The notes: a model not told the origin generated them from the letters alone. DNA of 64,000 bases from Candidatus Goldiibacteriota bacterium (GCA_938034975.1 CALHNI010000007.1:5036-69035), one strand, 5' to 3'; numbered from the stretch's first letter, positions 13,750 through 62,622 are shown. Program-made: numbers and translations.

Positions 13750-13778
13750 AAAGTCCTCCTGTAAATTTTATAGGTAGT

Positions 13779-14137
13779 GTGAAAAGTTTTAACGCTTTTT
13801 ACTTAAAAATCCTTTTATTCGTATACTTTGGTTGCCTTTGTTCTCCCTTTATCAAAGGGAGATTTAGGGGGATTTATATACATCCATTCTCTTTTTCTAG
13901 CTCTCTTTTAATTTAAAATCTCCCCTAACCCCTCTTTATTAAAGAGGGGAATTTTTTATTCTTATTCTTATTTTTTTTCTCCCCCTTTGCAAAGGGGGAC
14001 TAAGTGGGATTTGTTTCATTATTTTTAAATCTCCCCTACCTCCTCTTTTTAAAAGAGGAAAAATGTATATTATTTTCAATATTTTAGTATATATTTTAAT
14101 CTCTGCCTTCTTTCTTTTTCATAGAACTTTTCACATT
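13779..14137. repeat. Left arm of a roughly 360-bp inverted repeat pair
   Basis: Reverse complement of 15116-15480. The core 13809-14137 matches with only about a dozen by-eye differences. Contains four hairpin/G-C-box units at about 13843-13875, 13916-13949, 13979-14012 and 14027-14059. Confidence 0.9.
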
Positions 14138-14239: not shown

Positions 14240-14521
14240 TTATTTTATGAATATTTTTTGTATCCAACCACGTTCGCCATCAGGCAGTTCAATAAGAGCC
14301 ATTGGACCTTTAATTTCTATAATTTTTACTTTGGTGCCAGGTTTAATTTTTGTAAATGGTTTTTCACCTTTTTCAAATGGCTTTTTCCATACCTTAATAC
14401 TTTCTACATTTTTTATACCATCAAACCCAGTTGTGAAAATTTCTGTTCCTGTTTGCGGGTCAGTTTTTAAACCTGCACAGGATAATAAAACTATAAATAC
14501 AAAAAAAATTAATTTATTCAT
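14240..14521 (-). CDS. Small lipoprotein with SH3-like C-terminal region
   Basis: Signal peptide with lipobox LLSC. The KPGTKVKIIEIKGPMALIELPDGERGWI segment resembles bacterial SH3 domains. No SD; a -10-like hexamer lies close to the ATG. Confidence 0.65.
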   Translation of the reverse strand: MNKLIFFVFIVLLSCAGLKTDPQTGTEIFTTGFDGIKNVESIKVWKKPFEKGEKPFTKIKPGTKVKIIEIKGPMALIELPDGERGWIQKIFIK

Positions 14522-14574: not shown

Positions 14575-14630
14575 TAAAAAAGCGTTAGAAAATGCGTTTT
14601 TACTGAAAACAAAATTTTTTTATTATTTTT
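14575..14630 (-). repeat. Truncated copy of the two-hairpin intergenic repeat (hairpin-2 end only)
   Basis: TAAAAAAGCGTTAGAAAATGCGTTTTTA palindrome followed by GAAAACAAAATTTTTTTATTATT, as in the copies at 36638 and 24862 (reverse complement). Confidence 0.75.
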
Positions 14631-14634
14631 ATAG

Positions 14635-14663
14635 TTGACATAAAATTATATTTAATATATAAT
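14635..14663 (+). promoter_or_regulatory. Consensus sigma70-like promoter of the Rrf2 regulator gene
   Basis: Perfect TTGACA - 17 nt - TATAAT. Confidence 0.7.
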
Positions 14664-14705: not shown

Positions 14706-15122
14706 ATGAAAATATCAACAAAAGGCAGATACGCGATAAGGGCATTAACCCATCTTGCAAAAGCATATAATAAAAAAGAACCGCTAACCATAAAAGAATT
14801 ATCAAAACTTGAAAATATTTCAAACAGATACCTTGAAAATATATTTGTTAAATTAAGAAAAGCAAGAATTGTTAACAGTTATAAAGGCGAAAAAGGAGGT
14901 TTTTTTCTGGTAAAAGAACCTGAAAAAATAACCATGTATGAAATATTAAAAGCAGTAGAAAATTTAATGGAACCAGCTGAGTGTGTGATGGACAAAAATT
15001 TTTGTTATAGATTTAAAAACTGTGGTATGCGGACAATATGGATAAAATTTAATGAGCATATAAATAAATTTTTGAAAAATGTTAATTTAAAACAAATAGC
15101 AAAAGATTACCTGAGAATGTGA
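14706..15122 (+). CDS. iscR: Rrf2-family transcriptional regulator (IscR-like, three-Cys cluster ligands)
   Basis: MKISTKGRYAIRALTHLA winged-helix N-terminus. The C-x6-C-x5-C set (CVMDKNFCYRFKNC) is a candidate Fe-S ligand set. Lies upstream of nifS-iscU. GGAGGG RBS. Confidence 0.85.
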   Translation: MKISTKGRYAIRALTHLAKAYNKKEPLTIKELSKLENISNRYLENIFVKLRKARIVNSYKGEKGGFFLVKEPEKITMYEILKAVENLMEPAECVMDKNFCYRFKNCGMRTIWIKFNEHINKFLKNVNLKQIAKDYLRM

Positions 15123-15480
15123 AAAGTTCTATGAAAAGAAAGAAGGCAGAGTTTAAAATATATACTAAAAGTATTGAAAATAATATACATTTCCCCTCTT
15201 TTAAAAAGAGGAGGTAGGAGAGATTTAAAAATAATGAAACAAATCCCCCTTAGTCCCCCTTTTGCAAAGGGGGAGAAAAAAAATAAGAATAAGAATAAAA
15301 AATTCCCCTCTTTAATAAAGAGGGGTTAGGGGAGATTTTAAATTAAAAGAGAGCTAGAAAAAGAGAATGGATGTATGTAAATCCATTAAATCTCCCTTTG
15401 CTAAAGGGAGAACAAAGGCAACCAAAGTATACGAATAAAAGGATTATTAAATTAAATAGATGGCGTTAAAACTTTTTACA
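15116..15480. repeat. Right arm of the roughly 360-bp inverted repeat pair
   Basis: Reverse complement of 13779-14137. Starts inside the last two codons and stop of the Rrf2 gene and ends about 30 nt before nifS. Confidence 0.9.
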
Positions 15481-15508
15481 ATACTGATTACCTTGAAAGG
15501 AGATAAAA

Positions 15509-19121: not shown

Positions 19122-19149
19122 TGTAGCAAAATTTAAACAAAAAAAAAGT

Positions 19150-19207
19150 CCGGGGGCGGGCATCCCTAACTTAACCCTCCCCAATACCCCCTTACGTCCG
19201 CCCCCGG
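19150..19207 (+). ncRNA. Isolated GC-rich hairpin, candidate small RNA (strand uncertain)
   Basis: A 10-bp all-G/C stem (CCGGGGGCGG / CCGCCCCCGG) encloses a 38-nt loop with three C-rich boxes (CCCUAAC, CCCUCCCC, CCCCC). Flanked by an A9 run on + (a T9 run on -). It stands out against the AT-rich background. Confidence 0.45.
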
Positions 19208-19230
19208 TTAAAATAAAAACAAAATCACTT

Positions 19231-19427
19231 CATGGAAATTGCATTATTAGTGCGATTTTCACAGGAGAAAAAATACAAAATAATATATTAGTTAAAAAAA
19301 GTAAAAAATTTATAACAACAATTGAGTTTTATTTTAAAAAAACGGCTAAATAAAAATAATGCAATATAAGAATAATAAAAAAATTTTGTTTTTCCATAAA
19401 AACGCGTGTTCTAACTAGTTTTTACCG
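19231..19427 (+). repeat. Two-hairpin intergenic repeat, near-full copy (G)
   Basis: Hairpin-1 is GGAAATTGCA..TGCGATTTTC followed by AGGAGAAAAAA. Hairpin-2 is CCATAAAAACGCGTGTTCTAACTAGTTTTTACCG at 19394-19427. Confidence 0.8.
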
Positions 19428-19441
19428 TCACTTTAAAAAAT

Positions 19442-24582: not shown

Positions 24583-24664
24583 AAACTATATCCCATATTG
24601 ATTTTTTTATTTTATTATATTGTATTATAAAAAGTAAATCAATTGAAAAATGAAAAATTTTGAT

Positions 24665-24862
24665 CTGAAAATTGTATTATTAGAAGATTACGATATTCAG
24701 GAGAAAAAAAATAAAATATTTAAAACAACGCTTGTTTTTTATTTTAAATAAAAAAACGGGTGAATAAAAGAAATGCATTATAAAAATAAAAATTTATTAA
24801 ATAAAAATGATAAAAAAATTTTGTTTTTCCGTAAAAACGCGTTTTCTAACGCATTTTTACGG
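24665..24862 (+). repeat. Two-hairpin intergenic repeat, full copy (A)
   Basis: Hairpin-1 is CTGAAAATTGTA..TACGATATTCAG followed by GAGAAAAAAAA. Hairpin-2 is CCGTAAAAACGCGTTTTCTAACGCATTTTTACGG at 24829-24862. The reverse complement aligns almost base-for-base with 36638-36845. Confidence 0.9.
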
Positions 24863-32165: not shown

Positions 32166-32258
32166 TTTAACCAACCTCCTTTCATTTGATTTTTTTATTA
32201 AAATACAAAAGCATAAATTATGCCAGAAATTTTTTTATAAAAAAATATGGAAATTATA

Positions 32259-32464
32259 CCGTAAAAAGCATTGGAAAATGCGTTTTTATAAAAAGATAAA
32301 TATTTTTATCATTTTTATTTAATAAATTTTTGTTTTACTTTGATTAGCATGTTTTTTAATTAAAAAATAAAATATACATGTAGTTTTAAATTTTTGTTAT
32401 TTAATAACATTTTTATTGTATATTTTTCTCAATAAAATCACAATTTTCTATTGCTATTTGCAGG
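32259..32464 (-). repeat. Two-hairpin intergenic repeat, diverged full copy (E)
   Basis: Hairpin-2 is CCGTAAAAAGCATTGGAAAATGCGTTTTTATA at 32259-32290. The shared internal block is ATCATTTTTATTTAATAAATTTTTG. A hairpin-1-like end lies at 32428-32464. Confidence 0.7.
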
Positions 32465-32539
32465 TTATATATTTATTTGGAAAATTAAATTGTTTAAAAA
32501 TTTGATACTGATTGTTTTATTTTGAAACGCGTTGAAAAA

Positions 32540-34579: not shown

Positions 34580-34607
34580 TTGACATTTTTTGAAAAGATG
34601 ATATTAT
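34580..34607 (+). promoter_or_regulatory. Sigma70-like promoter of csp
   Basis: TTGACA - 16 nt - TATTAT with extended -10 TG, followed by a roughly 60-nt leader. Confidence 0.5.
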
Positions 34608-34668
34608 TTAATGCATTATAGTAAAGTTTTACTTTACTAGATTTTTGTTTCAGGAGGTTTTACGTTTT

Positions 34669-34875
34669 ATGGCAACAGGAAAGGTGAAGTGGTTCAATGA
34701 AAAGAAAGGCTACGGATTCATTGAACAGGAAGGCGGAAAGGATGTTTTTGTGCATTACGCGGCTATTCAGGGCGACGGATTTAAGACCTTAAAAGAAGGC
34801 GAAGTCGTAACCTTTGACATAGTCGAAGGCCAGAAAGGTCCACAGGCTTCAAACGTAGTAAGATCAGCAAAATAA
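34669..34875 (+). CDS. cspA: Cold-shock protein (CspA family)
   Basis: [18 protein letters not shown] (RNP1) and DVFVHY (RNP2). GGAGG RBS. The track ORF starts earlier, at a TTG. Confidence 0.95.
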
Positions 34876-34900
34876 ACTGGTTTTACCAGTAGCCATAAAG

Positions 34901-34938
34901 TTCCCGACAGGGGTTCGCTCTTGTCGGGAATTTTTTTT
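34901..34938 (+). terminator. Rho-independent terminator after csp
   Basis: TTCCCGACA - 12 nt loop - TGTCGGGAA followed by T8. Confidence 0.8.
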
Positions 34939-36637: not shown

Positions 36638-36845
36638 CAGTAAAAATGCATTAGAAAACGCGTTTTTACGAAAAAACAAAATTTTTTTATTATTCTTATT
36701 TAATAAATTTTTATTTTTATAATGCATTACTTTTATTCACCTGCTTTTTTATTTAAAATAAAGATAAATATTTTATTTTTTAAAATAATATATTATTTTG
36801 TGTTTTTTCTTATGAAAATTGCAATCTTTTATTACGATTTCCAAG
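36638..36845 (-). repeat. Two-hairpin intergenic repeat, full copy (B)
   Basis: Hairpin-2 is CAGTAAAAATGCATTAGAAAACGCGTTTTTACG at 36638-36670. Hairpin-1 is GAAAATTGCAAT..ATTACGATTTCC at 36809-36845. Near-identical to the reverse complement of copy A. Confidence 0.9.
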
Positions 36846-37075
36846 TATTAATTTTAAATTCCTTTAATAATGCTCATTGCTATAGTCATTATTGGCGAGA
36901 ATAAGTTTTGTGATGAATAATAAATAATGCTTTAAAACGAAAAATCTATTTATTGTTTTAAATCTTTCAGGTATATACCTTATGTTTTCTTATTAACATA
37001 CGGTTTAAAATTTATTCTTGACTTTTTAAAAAAATAAATATATCAATATTAAAATTAAAAAAAGGAAAATATTAA

Positions 37076-37963
37076 ATGGGTGAACATAAAAGTAAAGAGA
37101 AGAATTTATTTATAGCAATAATAATAAATATTTTTATTACAATATTAGAAATTATAGGGGGAATAATAAGCGGTTCTTTGGCCCTTTTATCGGATGCGTT
37201 TCATAATTTTTCTGATGTGGTATCATTGATTATTTCTTATTTTGCAATTTTAATAGGGCAAAAAGAAAAAAATTTTAAAAAGACATTCGGTTATAAAAGA
37301 GCAGAAATAATTGCTGCTTTTTTCAATGTAATTTTGCTTATTATTGCATGCTTTTTTATAATTACAGAAGCAGTAAAAAGATTTAAAAATCCAGAAATTA
37401 TAAACACGCATGTGCTTCTTATTATTGCTATAATTGGATTTGCAGGAAACGGAATTTCAATTTTCATTCTATTTAAAGATTCAGAAAAAAATCTTAATAT
37501 AAAATCTGCTTTTTTACATTTGCTCGGGGATACAATTTCTTCTTTAATTGTAATTGTTGTCTCACTTATTATGCTATTTAAACCATATTTTTGGTTAGAT
37601 TCAGTTTTTTCTATTCTGATAGCGTTATATATTATAAAAGAAAGTTTTTCAATATTAATTAAAACAATAAATATACTTATGCAATCAACCCCCAGGGAAA
37701 TTAATTTAACAAAAATAAAAAAAAGATTATTGTTTGAAAAAAAATTAGGTATACAGGATATACATCATTTACATGTATGGGAATTAACACCAGGCGAAAT
37801 CATTTTTGATTTGCATGTTGTTATAAAAAAGAAAGATCTTTTAAAAGCTGATTATATTATCAATCAGATAAATACTATTTTGTCAAAAGAATTTAAAATT
37901 TGTCATTCTACTATTCAGATTGAAAGCGAAAAAATAAGGCATAGTCCGCAATGCCAGATATGA
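37076..37963 (+). CDS. czcD: Cation diffusion facilitator (CzcD/ZitB-type Zn/Co/Cd efflux)
   Basis: Six TM helices, SLALLSDAFHNFSDV and HLLGDTISS motifs, and a C-terminal cytoplasmic domain. Confidence 0.85.
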   Translation: MGEHKSKEKNLFIAIIINIFITILEIIGGIISGSLALLSDAFHNFSDVVSLIISYFAILIGQKEKNFKKTFGYKRAEIIAAFFNVILLIIACFFIITEAVKRFKNPEIINTHVLLIIAIIGFAGNGISIFILFKDSEKNLNIKSAFLHLLGDTISSLIVIVVSLIMLFKPYFWLDSVFSILIALYIIKESFSILIKTINILMQSTPREINLTKIKKRLLFEKKLGIQDIHHLHVWELTPGEIIFDLHVVIKKKDLLKADYIINQINTILSKEFKICHSTIQIESEKIRHSPQCQI

Positions 37964-37965
37964 GA

Positions 37966-37999
37966 CCGTAAAAACGCAATTTTTAATGAGTTTTTACGG
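37966..37999. repeat. Solo hairpin-2 palindrome
   Basis: CCGTAAAAACGCAATTTTTAATGAGTTTTTACGG begins 3 nt after the czcD stop and ends 13 nt before a TTGACA box. Confidence 0.75.
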
Positions 38000-38012: not shown

Positions 38013-38041
38013 TTGACAAAATTTATATGATTATATATACT
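38013..38041 (+). promoter_or_regulatory. Sigma70-like promoter of the mini-ORF transcript
   Basis: TTGACA - 17 nt - TATACT. Confidence 0.6.
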
Positions 38042-38132: not shown

Positions 38133-38168
38133 ATGGCTAAAAAGAAAAAAGCAAAAAAGAAAAAATAA
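38133..38168 (+). CDS. Candidate 11-codon poly-lysine mini-ORF (MAKKKKAKKKK)
   Basis: AGGAGGG lies 6 nt upstream of the ATG. The unit has its own promoter (38013) and its own intrinsic terminator (38190-38235). Confidence 0.4.
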   Translation: MAKKKKAKKKK

Positions 38169-38189
38169 GTTAGATTTTTAATTTTTAAG

Positions 38190-38235
38190 AAACAACATAG
38201 TATTATTAAATAATGATACTATGTTGTTTTTTTTC
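38190..38235 (+). terminator. Rho-independent terminator
   Basis: AACAACATAGTA - 14 nt loop - TACTATGTTGTT followed by a T-run. Confidence 0.75.
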
Positions 38236-38312
38236 TTTTATTTATTTAAATTAAAATGTATAATAAACTAAAAATAGCAGTTTATATAAATAAATTTTAA
38301 AGTATGAAAATA

Positions 38313-38500
38313 CCTGAAAATTGTAAATTGTAATAGGAAATTGCGATTTTCAGGAGAAAAAATAAAAAATATTATTAAAGAGATAAAATATTTAAAAGAA
38401 CATTTGAGTTTTATTTAAAAAAATGTAAATAAAATAAAAGCAATGAATTATAAATATTTCATTTTTCTGTAAAAAATGCGTTTTCTAACGCTTTTTACGG
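38313..38500 (+). repeat. Two-hairpin intergenic repeat, full copy (C)
   Basis: Hairpin-1 is CCTGAAAATTGTAA..ATTGCGATTTTCAGG followed by AGAAAAAATAAAA. Hairpin-2 is CTGTAAAAAATGCGTTTTCTAACGCTTTTTACGG at 38467-38500, 24 nt before the ftsK ATG. Confidence 0.85.
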
Positions 38501-38524
38501 AAATATTTAAGGTATATAAATAAA

Positions 38525-49183: not shown

Positions 49184-51370
49184 TTGAAAAATATAGATAT
49201 TCTTTTAAACAAAGAACAAAAAGAAGCAGTTATGCATAAAGATGGTCCTTTGCTTATTTTAGCAGGTGCAGGAAGTGGAAAAACAAGAGTTATAACATAC
49301 AGGGTTGCTTATCTTATTTCAGAATACAAAATTCCACCGGAAAATATATTGGCAGTCACATTTACTAATAAAGCAGCAGATGAAATGAAATCAAGAATTA
49401 AAAATGTGGTAGGAAAAGCAGCAGATAAAATATGGATAAGTACTTTTCATTCTATGGGATGCAGAATATTAAGAGAGCATGCAGAAAAAATAGGGTATAC
49501 TAAAAATTTTACCATATATGATGAAGATGACAGGGAACGTCTCGTTAAAAATTGTATGTCCATTTGTAAAGTTTCTGAAAAACAGATAAAACCATATATA
49601 ATAATAGATAAAATTCAGGATAATAAAAATGAATTGATATCTGCAGATGAATATAAAAAAAATTATGCTGTTGGTTGGGAATCTAAAATTTTTGCTGATA
49701 TTTTTTTGCTTTATGAAGAAAAACTAAAAAGAAACAATGCAGTTGATTTTGATGACCTTATTATAAAGCCGATTGAGATTTTTGAAAAATTTCCGGAAGT
49801 TCTTTCGTTTTACAGAGAAAAATTCAGATATATTTTAATTGATGAATATCAGGATATTAATAATTCCCAGTATGTTCTTATTTCTATGATTGCGCAAAAG
49901 TATAAAAATATCTGTGTGGTTGGTGATGATGACCAGAGCATTTATAAATTTAGGGGAGCAGATATCACAAACATCCTTAGTTTTGAGGATGATTATCCAA
50001 ATGCCAAGGTGATTCGTCTTGAACAAAATTACAGGTCAACCAAAATAATTTTAAAAGCAGCTCATAGTGTCATAAAAAATAATATGAGTAGAAAAGAAAA
50101 AGAATTGTGGACTGAAAATAAAACAGGCGATAAAATAAAATTTTATAATGCAAATGATGAAAATGACGAAGCGGATTATGTTGTAGAAAATATATTCAAT
50201 TTAATAAGAAGTGAAGATATAAAATTAAAAGATATAGCAGTTTTTTACAGAATGAATGCCCAGTCAAGGGTTATAGAAGATAAATTAAGAAGAGCCGGTA
50301 TTCCATATAGGTTGGTTGGTGGTATACAATTTTATGGAAGGATGGAAATAAAAGATTTACTTGCTTATTTACGTATAATTTCCAACCCTTATGATACTTT
50401 AAGTTTTAAAAGAATAATAAATATTCCGCCAAGAGGTATAGGCGATGCAACAATTGATAGGTTAGAAAAATTCGGATTTGAAAATAATTTAATGATGTAT
50501 GATGTTTTATTTAAAATAGATGAGATCAGGGAAATCAAAGATAACCAGAGAAAATCACTTGAAAATTTAAGAGAATTTATAAAAGAATTGAATGAAATAA
50601 AAAATAAAATAAAAATGCAGGATTTGATTAAAGAGATTATTAATAGGACAGGTTATCTGAATTACTGGGAAAGTGACACAGATCCAAATTCAAAGGAAAG
50701 AGTTGAAAATATAAAAGAGTTAGTATCAGCAATTGCAGATTATGAGATGAATAATCCAGATAAAAAAATAGAAGATTTTTTAAATCAGGCGAGTTTAATT
50801 TCAGAAATTGACAGGTGGGATAAAGAAGCAAATGCAGTTACATTAATGACAATACATAGTGCCAAAGGATTAGAATTTGATGTTGTTTTTATTATTGGTA
50901 TGGATGAAAATATTTTCCCACATAAAAATTGTTTAGAAGAAGAAAATGGAATTGAAGAAGAAAGAAGATTGTGTTATGTTGGAATTACAAGGGCAAAAAG
51001 AAAACTCTTCCTTTTAAGCGCTGTAACAAGAAGACAGTATGGGACAAAAAAATTTACAAATGTGTCAAGATTCATAAAAGAAATTCCACAGGAAATTTTA
51101 GTAATGGAAGGGAAAACCCCACCGTCTTTAATAAGAAATAAAGAAGTGGAAACTATATATGAAAAAACAGATGATGCCGAAAATACAAATTATAATGATT
51201 TTGAATGTGAATATAAACCAGGACAGATAGTAAAACATATTAAAATGGGAATAGGAAAAATTGAAAAAGTAGAGCCATATGGAGATGATATAAGATTAAC
51301 AGTGATTTTCAGAAATAAAGGTAAAAGAACACTTTCAGCAAAATATGCAAAATTTGAAACTGTGGATTAG
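49184..51370 (+). CDS. pcrA: ATP-dependent DNA helicase PcrA/UvrD
   Basis: AGAGSGKTRV Walker A, DEYQD, NYRST, TIHSAKGLEF and YVGITRAK motifs. TTG start. Confidence 0.95.
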   Translation: MKNIDILLNKEQKEAVMHKDGPLLILAGAGSGKTRVITYRVAYLISEYKIPPENILAVTFTNKAADEMKSRIKNVVGKAADKIWISTFHSMGCRILREHAEKIGYTKNFTIYDEDDRERLVKNCMSICKVSEKQIKPYIIIDKIQDNKNELISADEYKKNYAVGWESKIFADIFLLYEEKLKRNNAVDFDDLIIKPIEIFEKFPEVLSFYREKFRYILIDEYQDINNSQYVLISMIAQKYKNICVVGDDDQSIYKFRGADITNILSFEDDYPNAKVIRLEQNYRSTKIILKAAHSVIKNNMSRKEKELWTENKTGDKIKFYNANDENDEADYVVENIFNLIRSEDIKLKDIAVFYRMNAQSRVIEDKLRRAGIPYRLVGGIQFYGRMEIKDLLAYLRIISNPYDTLSFKRIINIPPRGIGDATIDRLEKFGFENNLMMYDVLFKIDEIREIKDNQRKSLENLREFIKELNEIKNKIKMQDLIKEIINRTGYLNYWESDTDPNSKERVENIKELVSAIADYEMNNPDKKIEDFLNQASLISEIDRWDKEANAVTLMTIHSAKGLEFDVVFIIGMDENIFPHKNCLEEENGIEEERRLCYVGITRAKRKLFLLSAVTRRQYGTKKFTNVSRFIKEIPQEILVMEGKTPPSLIRNKEVETIYEKTDDAENTNYNDFECEYKPGQIVKHIKMGIGKIEKVEPYGDDIRLTVIFRNKGKRTLSAKYAKFETVD

Positions 51371-51378
51371 AAAGTATT

Positions 51379-51535
51379 ATATCTTTATTTTTTAAATAAT
51401 ATTATTTTTGTGTTTTTTTCTCCTGAAAATCGCAATCTTTTAATGCGACTTTCATGTTGCATTAAATATTTTATTTCTTTAGTGATATTCTTTTTATTTT
51501 TTTCTGGAAATCACAATTTCCTATTTATTTTCAGG
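51379..51535 (-). repeat. Partial two-hairpin repeat (F): internal block plus two hairpin-1 modules, no hairpin-2
   Basis: TTTTTCTCCTGAAAATCGCAATC..GCGACTTTCATG at 51422-51456 and CTGGAAATCACAAT..TTATTTTCAGG at 51504-51535. Confidence 0.7.
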
Positions 51536-55958: not shown

Positions 55959-56123
55959 CCGTAAAAATGCGTTTTCTAACGCGTTTTTACTTAAAAACTA
56001 TAATACATTGCTTTTAATTGCCTATCTTTAAATTTAAAATAAAAAAAGTTTTGTCTTAAAAATTTTATTTGTTTAACAATATTTTTTCTGAAAATTGCAA
56101 TTTCCTATTGGTAATTTCATTGG
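55959..56123 (-). repeat. Two-hairpin intergenic repeat, shorter copy (D)
   Basis: Hairpin-2 is CCGTAAAAATGCGTTTTCTAACGCGTTTTTAC at 55959-55990. Hairpin-1 is CTGAAAATTGCAAT..GGTAATTTCATTGG at 56088-56123. Confidence 0.8.
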
Positions 56124-56135
56124 GATTTTCTTTTA

Positions 56136-61752: not shown

Positions 61753-62622
61753 ATGATAAAATTTTCTAAAAAAGATAAAATAATTTTACTTTCTGTTTTA
61801 TCAAATGCTGTGCTGGTAATTTTAAAACTTGCAGTTGGAATAATATCTGGTCTTGTAAGTATAATAGCTGAAGCATTGCATTCTTTAAATGACCTTTTTG
61901 CAGCGTTTATTGCATTTGTTGGGGTAAGGAAAGCGCAGGGACCGCCTGATGATAAGCATCAGTATGGGCACGGAAAAATAGAAATTTTAACAGGAGTTAT
62001 TGAAAACATTTTAATTTTTTTGATTTCTCTTTATATAATATACGAAGGAATAAATAAATTCATTCATAAAACCAAAACCGAATTTATTGAATTAGGAATT
62101 TTAATCATGATTTTTTCAGGTGTTGTCAATTTCTTTTTGTCTGGTTTTTTAATAAAAAAAGGAAGGGAATTAAGATCAATAGGCATAGAAGTTGATGGCG
62201 AACATTTGAGAGCAGATGTTATTACATCATTTGGAGTTGGGTTTGCACTTATAATTCTTAAAATAACAAATATATGGTGGATTGACCCCTTTGCTGCAAT
62301 ATTAGTAGGTATCTGGGTATTTTTTATTTTTTTAAGATTGTTAAAAAAATTAGTTGAACAGACAATTGATACCGGGATAAGCAATGATCAAATTAAAAAA
62401 ATTGAACAAATTCTTGATGAACAAAAAGAAATAAAATTTTATCATAAAATACGAACAAGGCAGAGTGGTTCTACTATCTTTATTGATATGCATATCAAAG
62501 TTGATAAAAATTTATCAGTAGAAAAGTCGCATGAGATTACAGAAAAATTAGAAAAAAAAATCAGTGAACAATTTGGCGATGTTAATGTGCTTATACATGT
62601 TGAACCATCAAAAAAAGGGTAA
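61753..62622 (+). CDS. Cation diffusion facilitator (FieF/MamB-like)
   Basis: Six TM helices, SIIAEALHSLNDL and HLRADVITS motifs, and a C-terminal dimerisation domain. Confidence 0.85.
   Translation: MIKFSKKDKIILLSVLSNAVLVILKLAVGIISGLVSIIAEALHSLNDLFAAFIAFVGVRKAQGPPDDKHQYGHGKIEILTGVIENILIFLISLYIIYEGINKFIHKTKTEFIELGILIMIFSGVVNFFLSGFLIKKGRELRSIGIEVDGEHLRADVITSFGVGFALIILKITNIWWIDPFAAILVGIWVFFIFLRLLKKLVEQTIDTGISNDQIKKIEQILDEQKEIKFYHKIRTRQSGSTIFIDMHIKVDKNLSVEKSHEITEKLEKKISEQFGDVNVLIHVEPSKKG

Follow-up and report, generated by a model that had tools for sequence, protein, structure and literature searches.

A 64,000-nucleotide (nt) stretch of DNA from a Candidatus Goldiibacteriota bacterium (GCA_938034975.1, CALHNI010000007.1:5036-69035; the whole stretch is referred to as the window) carries a family of short repeats in its intergenic spacers. 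We consider that this family is probably a non-autonomous DNA transposon of the MITE (miniature inverted-repeat transposable element) type, spread through the intergenic spaces of an uncultured Goldbacteria-like bacterium. The reading is based on empty orthologous sites in relatives, short direct duplications at the ends of copies, copies in unrelated gene contexts elsewhere, and truncated and tandem fragments. The family itself is new, its kind is ordinary and well known, and it leaves the current understanding of bacterial repeats unchallenged. A first-pass annotation of the same DNA had offered a mobile non-autonomous element, a family of structured RNAs and a regulatory cassette as possible explanations. 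The first is favoured by the empty sites, the 5-6 base pair (bp) duplications, the occurrence of both orientations, the truncations and the copies in other genomes.

Full copies are 165-210 bp long, free of open reading frames (ORFs) and have a G+C content of 16-22% (about 20%); that of the window is ~28%, and its genes lie mostly on the + strand. Reading 5' to 3', a copy consists of hairpin-1, GAGAAAAAA, an AT-rich core with insertions and deletions (indels), and hairpin-2, as the first-pass annotation had described, with a core of ~130 nt between the two hairpins. Copies lie in both orientations relative to neighbouring genes, and diverge from one another by 11-27% in pairwise comparison. 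A hidden Markov model (HMM) of the six near-full copies claimed previously was run over the window with nhmmer, and recovered all six with E-values of 1e-28 to 1e-40. The same HMM also recovered the previously noted partial copies and a solo hairpin, giving a tally of six full copies (A to F), three partial regions (two in G, one in H) and one solo hairpin in 64 kb (Table 1). A degenerate hairpin-2 pattern produced nine strand-hits at six sites in the window against none in 100 shuffles, which is above what chance would give. One pair of copies had been said to align almost base for base over about 200 nt. The similarity itself was confirmed, but its extent was smaller; a repeat search of the window aligned 24738-24860 with 36640-36762 at 94% over 123 nt, and the longer alignment is ~88% identical over 195 aligned nt with two indels. 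Two degenerate half-sites, 13779-13802 and 15462-15480, had also been assigned to the family. They are not members: they gave nhmmer E-values of 0.8 or higher and lie at the extremities of another inverted repeat, whose arms measure ~360 nt.

One line of evidence comes from orthologous positions. Syntenic relatives were found in GCA_973628015.1 (loci L090, L098 and L102) and in run SRR27730023 (loci L093 and L100); their FtsK and CheR proteins are 78-81% and 83-86% identical to those of the window, and gene order is conserved. The family profile gave no nhmmer hit in ~150 kb of relatives, including the more distant L105. A presence/absence comparison, which the first-pass annotation had recommended, showed A, B, C and H to have empty counterpart sites in two syntenic relatives, where promoters, ribosome-binding sites and a hairpin in the flanks are conserved. 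At site A, L098 and L100 have only a short spacer between a hairpin and the promoter AAATTTGACAAA...GTGATAA(A/G)AT. At site B, the DUF1844-sufC spacer measures 142 nt in L100 and 353 nt in the window, with its ends conserved. Site C follows a block 5' of ftsK that is conserved in all three lineages and consists of a promoter, a tiny ORF, a terminator hairpin and a AAATTAAAATGTATAAT motif, ending with TGTATAAT. In L093 and L090 the ftsK ribosome-binding site follows TGTATAAT after ~20 nt, and in the window 188 nt of element stand between the two. Copy C thus lies in the ftsK leader, unless copy C itself supplies a promoter. At site H, the distance between two divergent -35 boxes is 12-15 nt in the relatives and 76 nt in the window, the extra sequence being a hairpin-2 fragment. 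In addition, the spacers in L102 that match those of F and G contain no copy, and the downstream promoters there are conserved (G) or present. L093 and L090 have neither a copy nor a cation-efflux gene at the position of copy E, and no solo hairpin-2 upstream of the orthologous tiny-ORF promoter.

While GCA_973628015.1 lacks the window family, it carries instead another repeat of ~300 nt and higher G+C content (...GGAAGCCGAAAGG...GACGAAGCAATCTGGCAGTTGAAAAACGG...GATTGCTTTGTCAGGC...). This repeat occupies the same spacers as the window family, namely those downstream of mnmA, between the phosphoglucomutase gene (PGM) and ftsK, upstream of a gene for a 298-residue protein, and between the radical-SAM and AMP-ligase genes. 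The filling of the same spacers by a different repeat in a sister lineage points to a small number of tolerated slots in these compact, AT-rich genomes. We read the positions of the window copies in the same manner: insertions survive only in tolerated intergenic slots, immediately upstream of a -35 box, a short way past a terminator or stop codon, or within a 5' leader.

The first-pass annotation had seen no target-site duplication. Boundaries were set by alignment, with the C of C(C/A/T)TG as first base and the G of AC(G/C/T)G as last base. Flanks placed in this way showed exact 5-6 bp duplications at A, C and D, and also at one copy from another genome, L061a (Table 1). In AT-rich parts of the window the null values for an exact match are 0.007 for a 5-mer and 0.002 for a 6-mer, and at least three exact duplications among six copies has a probability of P = 1.6e-5. 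At the empty site A, L098 has a single related TTCA, as against the two TCACTT in the window. The left flanks vary from copy to copy (CACTT, TTTGA, AAATA, TATAA, TAATA). These features are consistent with a transposase, encoded elsewhere, which would bind the ends and integrate the element at AT-rich targets, the direct duplications arising from a staggered cut of 5 bp and, once, 6 bp. The copies, once inserted, decay by internal deletion, truncation and inversion of the loop within a palindrome.

By definition, prokaryotic MITEs are AT-rich elements shorter than 500 bp that insert at AT-rich targets between genes; they have terminal inverted repeats (TIRs) of 4-30 bp and are flanked by direct repeats which erode as copies age (PMC10969869). 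The present family is shorter than 500 bp and non-coding, has flanking direct repeats, and differs by presence and absence at orthologous sites. It falls within the working definition of a prokaryotic MITE, with the qualification that its inverted repeat is weak and that a partner element was not found.

Several observations weigh against this assignment. We found no transposase and no full-length parent element; the ORFs of the window include no transposase, as the first-pass annotation had stated. The terminal inverted repeat agrees at only about 9 of 15 positions. The window lineage is the outgroup of the three close genomes; the case for gain over loss thus depends on the duplications and on how precise the empty sites are, and the distant L105 is not syntenic at sites A and B. 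The duplication scores hang on the boundary set by alignment, and a shift of one base alters individual scores. No duplication was seen at copies B and F. Part of B nevertheless shares 94% identity with E, and were this similarity a sign of youth, a clean duplication would be expected. Finally, the flanks of copy C also fit a duplication of ~18 nt (14/18), unlike the simple 5-bp rule. An IS1380-like partner was considered in view of the duplication length and the CC ends, and was rejected because the papers searched gave no confirmation.

The structure of the ends bears on how the element may have moved. Hairpin-2 has the form A5-CGCGTT-loop-AACGCG-T5 and, folded as DNA, gave -9.5 to -12.2 kcal/mol with z-scores near -5 (copy B: -12.2 kcal/mol, z -5.2). 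Hairpin-1, which had been described as a general feature, is strong in some copies only: it gave -8.2 kcal/mol in copy C, but -1.6 and -1.4 kcal/mol in B and E, near background (z near 0). The left outer end is CC(T/A)GAAAATYGCAAT and the right one AACGCRTTTTTAC(G/C)G; in other notations they read CCTGAAAAT.../...TTTTTACGG and CCTGAAAATYGCAAT.../...AACGCRTTTTTACGG. Read inward, left CCTGAAAATTGCAAT and right CCGTAAAAACGCGTT are alike at 9 of 15 positions and both start with CC, which suggests that the two ends form a weak terminal inverted repeat. Each terminal arm directly precedes its own inverted copy, resulting in a palindrome at each end, hairpin-1 and hairpin-2. The palindromes are A+T-rich and start with CCGTAA or CCTGAA. 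The hairpin-2 loop is reversed in two copies, one at 55959 (AGAA relative to the body) and one at L061 3958-3995; the first-pass annotation had assigned this reversal to copy D, at 32259, which lacks it. In both loop-inverted copies the mismatched outer stem keeps its orientation, which fits a flip at the DNA level within the palindrome. A site for integration host factor (IHF) or a small ORF past the GGAG after hairpin-1 was considered and rejected; by eye, neither a start codon nor a consensus match is present.

Taking into account that the family has two distinct end hairpins, as do the left and right ends of IS200/IS605 elements, we considered mobilization by an enzyme that recognizes hairpins. 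The family would then be a REP/BIME/REPIN type of repeat moved by RAYT, or a palindromic element derived from IS200/IS605, with an HUH (Y1) transposase reading the hairpins as single-stranded DNA. The strength of hairpin-2 as DNA and the presence of a solo hairpin-2 also agree with this explanation, and the start CCGTAA of hairpin-2 is loosely like the GTAG head of REPs. The REP/BIME elements of enterobacteria and the REPINs of Pseudomonas are extragenic palindromes at gene ends, composite with a spacer, and can affect termination and mRNA stability. In REPs the palindrome is G+C-rich with a GTAG head, RAYT (HUH) enzymes carry out the movement, and no duplication arises; the present family has A+T-rich palindromes and duplications. 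HUH transposition leaves no duplication and inserts beside a fixed target of 4-5 nt. Here, exact 5-6 bp duplications of differing sequence were found in four of the six full copies scored, the left flank changes from copy to copy and recurs on the right side, and hairpin-1 is not kept in several copies. There is no fixed tetra- or pentanucleotide with insertion on its 3' side, as in IS200/IS605, and no Y1 or RAYT domain was found among the ORFs of the window. HUH-type mobilization, by either route, is disfavoured by the duplications, and we regard it as very unlikely.

A further possibility is that the terminal palindromes themselves are independent mobile modules. The 34-bp solo palindrome would then be the minimal unit, made of two inverted ends, and the modules would act as "mobile terminators". 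Their transposase would recognize palindromic or cruciform ends, make 5-bp duplications and prefer positions ~13-16 nt upstream of -35 boxes. To our knowledge, this combination of end recognition, 5-bp duplications and promoter-adjacent mobile terminators has been described for no IS family, and we give the idea little credence. If it were true, the solo palindrome at 37966 would double as a bidirectional terminator.

The positions of hairpin-2 also raised the possibility that the repeat is a selected regulatory or insulating cassette, in which hairpin-2 would serve as a bidirectional terminator or a palindromic operator at a fixed distance from promoters. In A, B, H and the solo copy, the end of hairpin-2 precedes a strong TTGACA -35 box by 13-16 nt, and three of these -35 sites rank among the top five promoter-like sites of 19.6 kb. 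It is located 2-45 nt past stop codons at 37966 and 55959, and 15 nt past one in L061. A terminator scan flagged the hairpin-2 of B and C, each with a 5-bp G+C core and a T-run. Hairpin-2 is also found in front of genes and in the ftsK leader, and the distance of hairpin-1 from a -35 box is ~5 nt in F and 24 nt in G. On a wider scale, AAAAAYGCRTT-N4-AAYGCNTTTT occurs as a single motif in more than 80 unrelated genomes from many phyla among the matches listed, and a crude check placed ~43% of these sites within 150 nt downstream of the end of an ORF. These single motifs (L004-L087) are often perfect palindromes on both strands. Their distribution fits a common type of bidirectional intrinsic terminator, which would not imply homology to the family.

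Nevertheless, the promoters and their spacing are already present in relatives without the element, indicating that the element was added to working units. The different repeat of GCA_973628015.1 also ends 14 nt from a -35 box, which speaks for tolerated slots and not for design, and the orientation of the copies towards genes is not fixed. The cell-division gene ftsK, as a rule essential, has its start codon 24 nt past the hairpin-2 of copy C, and this argues against strong termination. Copy C must be co-transcribed with ftsK, and its position argues that termination at hairpin-2 would not be tight. A cassette would account for a consequence of the element and not for its origin or spread. 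We therefore consider a selected cassette unlikely as the nature of the family. As a side effect of a MITE, the regulatory idea survives: it is plausible from the sequence that hairpin-2 insulates or attenuates neighbouring transcription units. Considering their positions near promoters and in the ftsK leader, together with their terminator-shaped hairpins, the copies are plausible modifiers of local transcription, and the clean empty sites in relatives make such effects testable.

We also examined the possibility of a structured-RNA family, in which small RNA genes or cis-acting leaders would start from a TATAAT on the reverse strand of the core and end at hairpin-1. A reverse-strand TATAAT does occur in the most conserved block of the core: B, C, E, F and L061c carry it, and A and L059 have variants. 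On this strand hairpin-2 pairs perfectly when G-U pairs are included, a UCUCC motif precedes hairpin-1, and whole-element folds gave z-scores of -4.7 and -3.5. The better-than-shuffle values of single folds follow from the palindromes and from pairing between A-runs and T-runs. A search against Rfam gave no hit at the gathering threshold, and at E-values up to 5 the single match overlapping a copy was noise, to mir-722 (E = 4). RNAalifold on eight full copies gave a consensus of -2.8 kcal/mol that comprised only the terminal hairpin, with a positive (unfavourable) covariation term. The test of the stems for covariation, which had been suggested as a check, revealed a single covarying pair in hairpin-2 (G-C versus A-U, 4:4) among 11 copies with 85% pairing, and no measure exceeded shuffles. 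Hairpin-1 and the core show large indels and decay, the TATAAT has a poor -35 region and was left unranked by the promoter scan, and relatives with the same genes lack the element. As the main explanation, a structured RNA is very unlikely.

Copies were also detected outside the window. The flanking genes in the window are housekeeping genes (mnmA, sufCBD, hsp20, PGM, ftsK, lolA, uvrD and a dGTPase gene). Among named homologues, those closest to FtsK, CheR and the dGTPase, at 59-69% identity, belong to Candidatus Goldbacteria/Goldiibacteriota. A search for the exact window proteins in other samples returned the same strain only. Species genomes were scanned with a loose hairpin-2 pattern, giving at least 84 loci in unrelated phyla, and among the matches listed the whole element was present in only two. 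One, L061 (CALJNE010000084.1), has three copies and also carries the second repeat family of the window. The other, L059 (JACVJA010000310.1), has one copy on a 3.2-kb contig of 26% G+C that was binned with an actinobacterial hot-spring metagenome-assembled genome, probably mistakenly. The gene contexts in both are unrelated to those of the window. The copies of L061 and L059 are 73-89% similar to the window copies, about as similar as the window copies are to one another. Taken with the divergence among the window copies, this suggests an expansion of some age or a passage between related lineages, and not a burst in the very recent past.

The element was not found in the other collections searched. 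A scan of JGI metagenomes with the conserved core motif gave two chance matches and no element, IMG/VR scans with the hairpin-2 and hairpin-1 patterns gave no match, and neither did blastn against plasmids and phages. Together with the Rfam result, these searches leave the novelty suggested by the first-pass annotation intact. A full-text literature search found no paper on an interspersed repeat family of Goldbacteria, and this family appears to be the first interspersed repeat described for that uncultured lineage. Contigs assembled from short reads of the same organism begin or stop at copies, as expected of a multi-copy repeat, and the copies account for short-read assembly breaks at these spots. 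In annotation, copies should be masked or annotated as such, and not taken for regulatory RNA.

The first-pass annotation had likened the repeat to BOX, Correia and REP-type elements, and the comparison is apt in kind. By analogy, the closest counterparts would be the pneumococcal SPRITE (terminator-like) and BOX (modular) repeats and the Correia elements. Correia and RUP elements duplicate TA, in contrast to the 5-6 bp of this family. No sequence similarity to Correia, RUP or QMITEs was detected, nor was any expected, and the present element differs in its weak inverted repeat and in having a palindrome at each terminus. What it shares with prokaryotic MITEs such as Correia/NEMIS of Neisseria, RUP of pneumococcus and the QMITEs of Coxiella is a length below 500 bp, an AT-rich and non-coding sequence, and multiple intergenic copies. 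Also alike are the presence of TIRs, weak ones in this family, short duplications that fade with age, lineage-specific expansion, and the possible addition of hairpins, terminators or promoters (PMC10969869). SPRITE is a small AT-rich interspersed repeat with the look of a rho-independent terminator, found near the ends of coding sequences and with A4/T4 termini, and BOX is modular, with lone modules in existence (PMC3049150). The present family resembles them in its terminator-like hairpin-2 with A5/T5 arms, in its solo module and in that modules can be missing. SPRITE belongs to a different phylum and is unrelated in sequence, with a single 18-bp duplex and no established duplication (PMC3049150); the present family has two different hairpins, a ~130-nt core, duplications and empty sites.

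Tn3-family inverted repeats usually begin with GGGG. The present element starts with CC(T/G), its ends are similar over ~15 nt at 9 of 15 positions and do not match those of Tn3, and no Tn3-family transposase was seen in the window. Tn3-family transposons and their miniature derivatives (TIMEs) yield AT-rich direct repeats of 5 or 6 bp, for example AAATA and AATAT, at AT-rich targets, and TIMEs have inverted repeats of ~40 bp (38-40) related to Tn3 ends (PMC4133298). The duplications observed here, AAATA, TATAA (twice) and TCACTT, are likewise AT-rich repeats of 5 and, in one case, 6 bp.

Table 1. Copies of the repeat family and related features. Positions refer to the window unless a locus is named; flanks are left/right with the number of matching bases.
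Feature	Position	Strand	nhmmer	Flanks	Description and setting
Copy A	19231-19427	+	19232-19427, E 1.9e-40	TCACTT/TCACTT, 6/6 (19225-19230 and 19428-19433, abutting both ends)	Full, 197 nt; GC-rich conserved hairpin (candidate small RNA) on one side, promoter of a 132-residue lipoprotein gene on the other
Copy B	24664-24862	+	24665-24862, E 2.1e-38	No matching or clear duplication	Full, reference copy of the first-pass annotation; hairpin-1 24665-24699, hairpin-2 24829-24862; spacer of divergent DUF1844 and sufC genes
Copy C	38313-38500	+	38322-38500, E 4.7e-34	AAATA/AAATA, 5/5 (38308-38312 and 38501-38505)	Full; ftsK leader, between the conserved TGTATAAT box and the ftsK ribosome-binding site
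Copy D	32259-32464	-	E 2.7e-31	TATAA/TATAA (+ strand TTATA), 5/5 (32254-32258 and 32465-32469)	Full; between the 3' end of an ompA-family gene and the 5' end of hsp20
Copy E	36638-36845	-	E 1.3e-37	TAATA/TAAAA, 4/5	Full; between the 3' end of the phosphoglucomutase gene and a cation-efflux gene that is absent here in relatives
Copy F	55959-56127	-	55959-56119, E 3.4e-28	No matching duplication	~165 nt; internal deletion, hairpin-2 loop reversed, outer hairpin-1 end degenerate; hairpin-2 45 nt past the stop codon of the radical-SAM gene; AMP-ligase promoter (TTGACA-17-TATAAT) with its -35 box ~5 nt from hairpin-1
Copy G	51384-51533	-	51384-51455, E 2e-9; 51454-51533, E 7e-5		Two tandem truncated 5' halves, hairpin-1 in each; between uvrD and a gene of unknown function
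Copy H	14575-14635	-	E 6e-10		Truncated 3' end (hairpin-2 and ~28 nt of core); inserted between the -35 boxes of two divergent promoters, small-ORF and Rrf2
Solo hairpin-2	37966-37999	unassigned	E 0.002		DNA fold -9.5 kcal/mol, z -5.3; 2 nt past the cation-efflux stop codon, -35 box of the tiny-ORF promoter 13 nt downstream
Copy L061a	L061			TATAA/TATAA, 5/5 (boundary before CC)	Copy in another genome
~300-nt repeat of GCA_973628015.1	L090 6830-7130, 9070-9400; L098 7900-8130; L102 7420-7720, 12400-12550				Different repeat

The inverted repeat to which the two rejected half-sites belong is a second repeat family in the window. Its arms, 13756-14118 and 15134-15502, are ~360 nt long, with sub-blocks that are 94-98% complementary, and are built of short G+C-rich hairpins such as CCCCTCTTTATTAAAGAGGGG. 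They bracket a small secreted ORF (14240-14521, - strand) and the gene of an Rrf2 regulator (14706-15122, + strand), and the segment between them is possibly invertible. The relatives have the same ORF and Rrf2 genes without the arms, the gap between Rrf2 and iscS being 4 nt in L098 versus 386 nt in the window. A unit related to the arms is present at L061 7041-7157, with 79-88% identity.

The GC-rich hairpin beside copy A (19148-19207, + strand) has a 12-bp stem, a folding energy of -26 kcal/mol and a C-rich loop of 34 nt (CCCUCCCC, ACCCCC), with a promoter-like TTGACA at ~19093. It is 100% identical in L098 and L100, where proteins are only ~80-86% identical, and has no Rfam match. We regard it as a candidate small RNA, whose C-rich motifs could pair with Shine-Dalgarno sequences.

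Upstream of ftsK, the tiny ORF at 38133-38168 (+ strand) encodes MAKKKKAKKKK and is preceded by a strong AAGGAGG ribosome-binding site. A promoter (38013-38041) and a 20-bp terminator hairpin (38187-38232) accompany it, and it is conserved as MATKKKKAKKKK in L090 and MACKKKAKKKKK in L093. Judged by its sequence, the product may be a leader peptide or a micro-protein. The nearby cation-efflux gene (cation diffusion facilitator, CDF; 37076-37963) has the hairpin-1 end of copy E on one side and the solo hairpin-2 on the other, and L090 and L093 have no such gene between PGM and ftsK. A second CDF paralogue at 61753-62622 is the counterpart of the CDF gene of the relatives. A composite cargo element made up of hairpin-1, the cation-efflux gene and hairpin-2 (36811-37999) was considered and rejected, as there was no matching duplication.

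Two sub-threshold Rfam matches were observed in the window. At 34618-34937 (+ strand), a match to the cspA thermoregulator 5' untranslated region scored 49 bits against a gathering threshold of 78 (E = 1.6e-9). A promoter-like TTGACA-16-TATTAT starts at 34580 and a strong terminator is located at 34897-34934; this region is probably a cold-shock gene with a structured leader. The second, at 50927-51031 (+ strand) inside uvrD, matched n00280, "C. difficile sRNA included into helicase gene", with 46 bits against 65 (E = 2e-4), and most likely reflects conserved helicase coding sequence.

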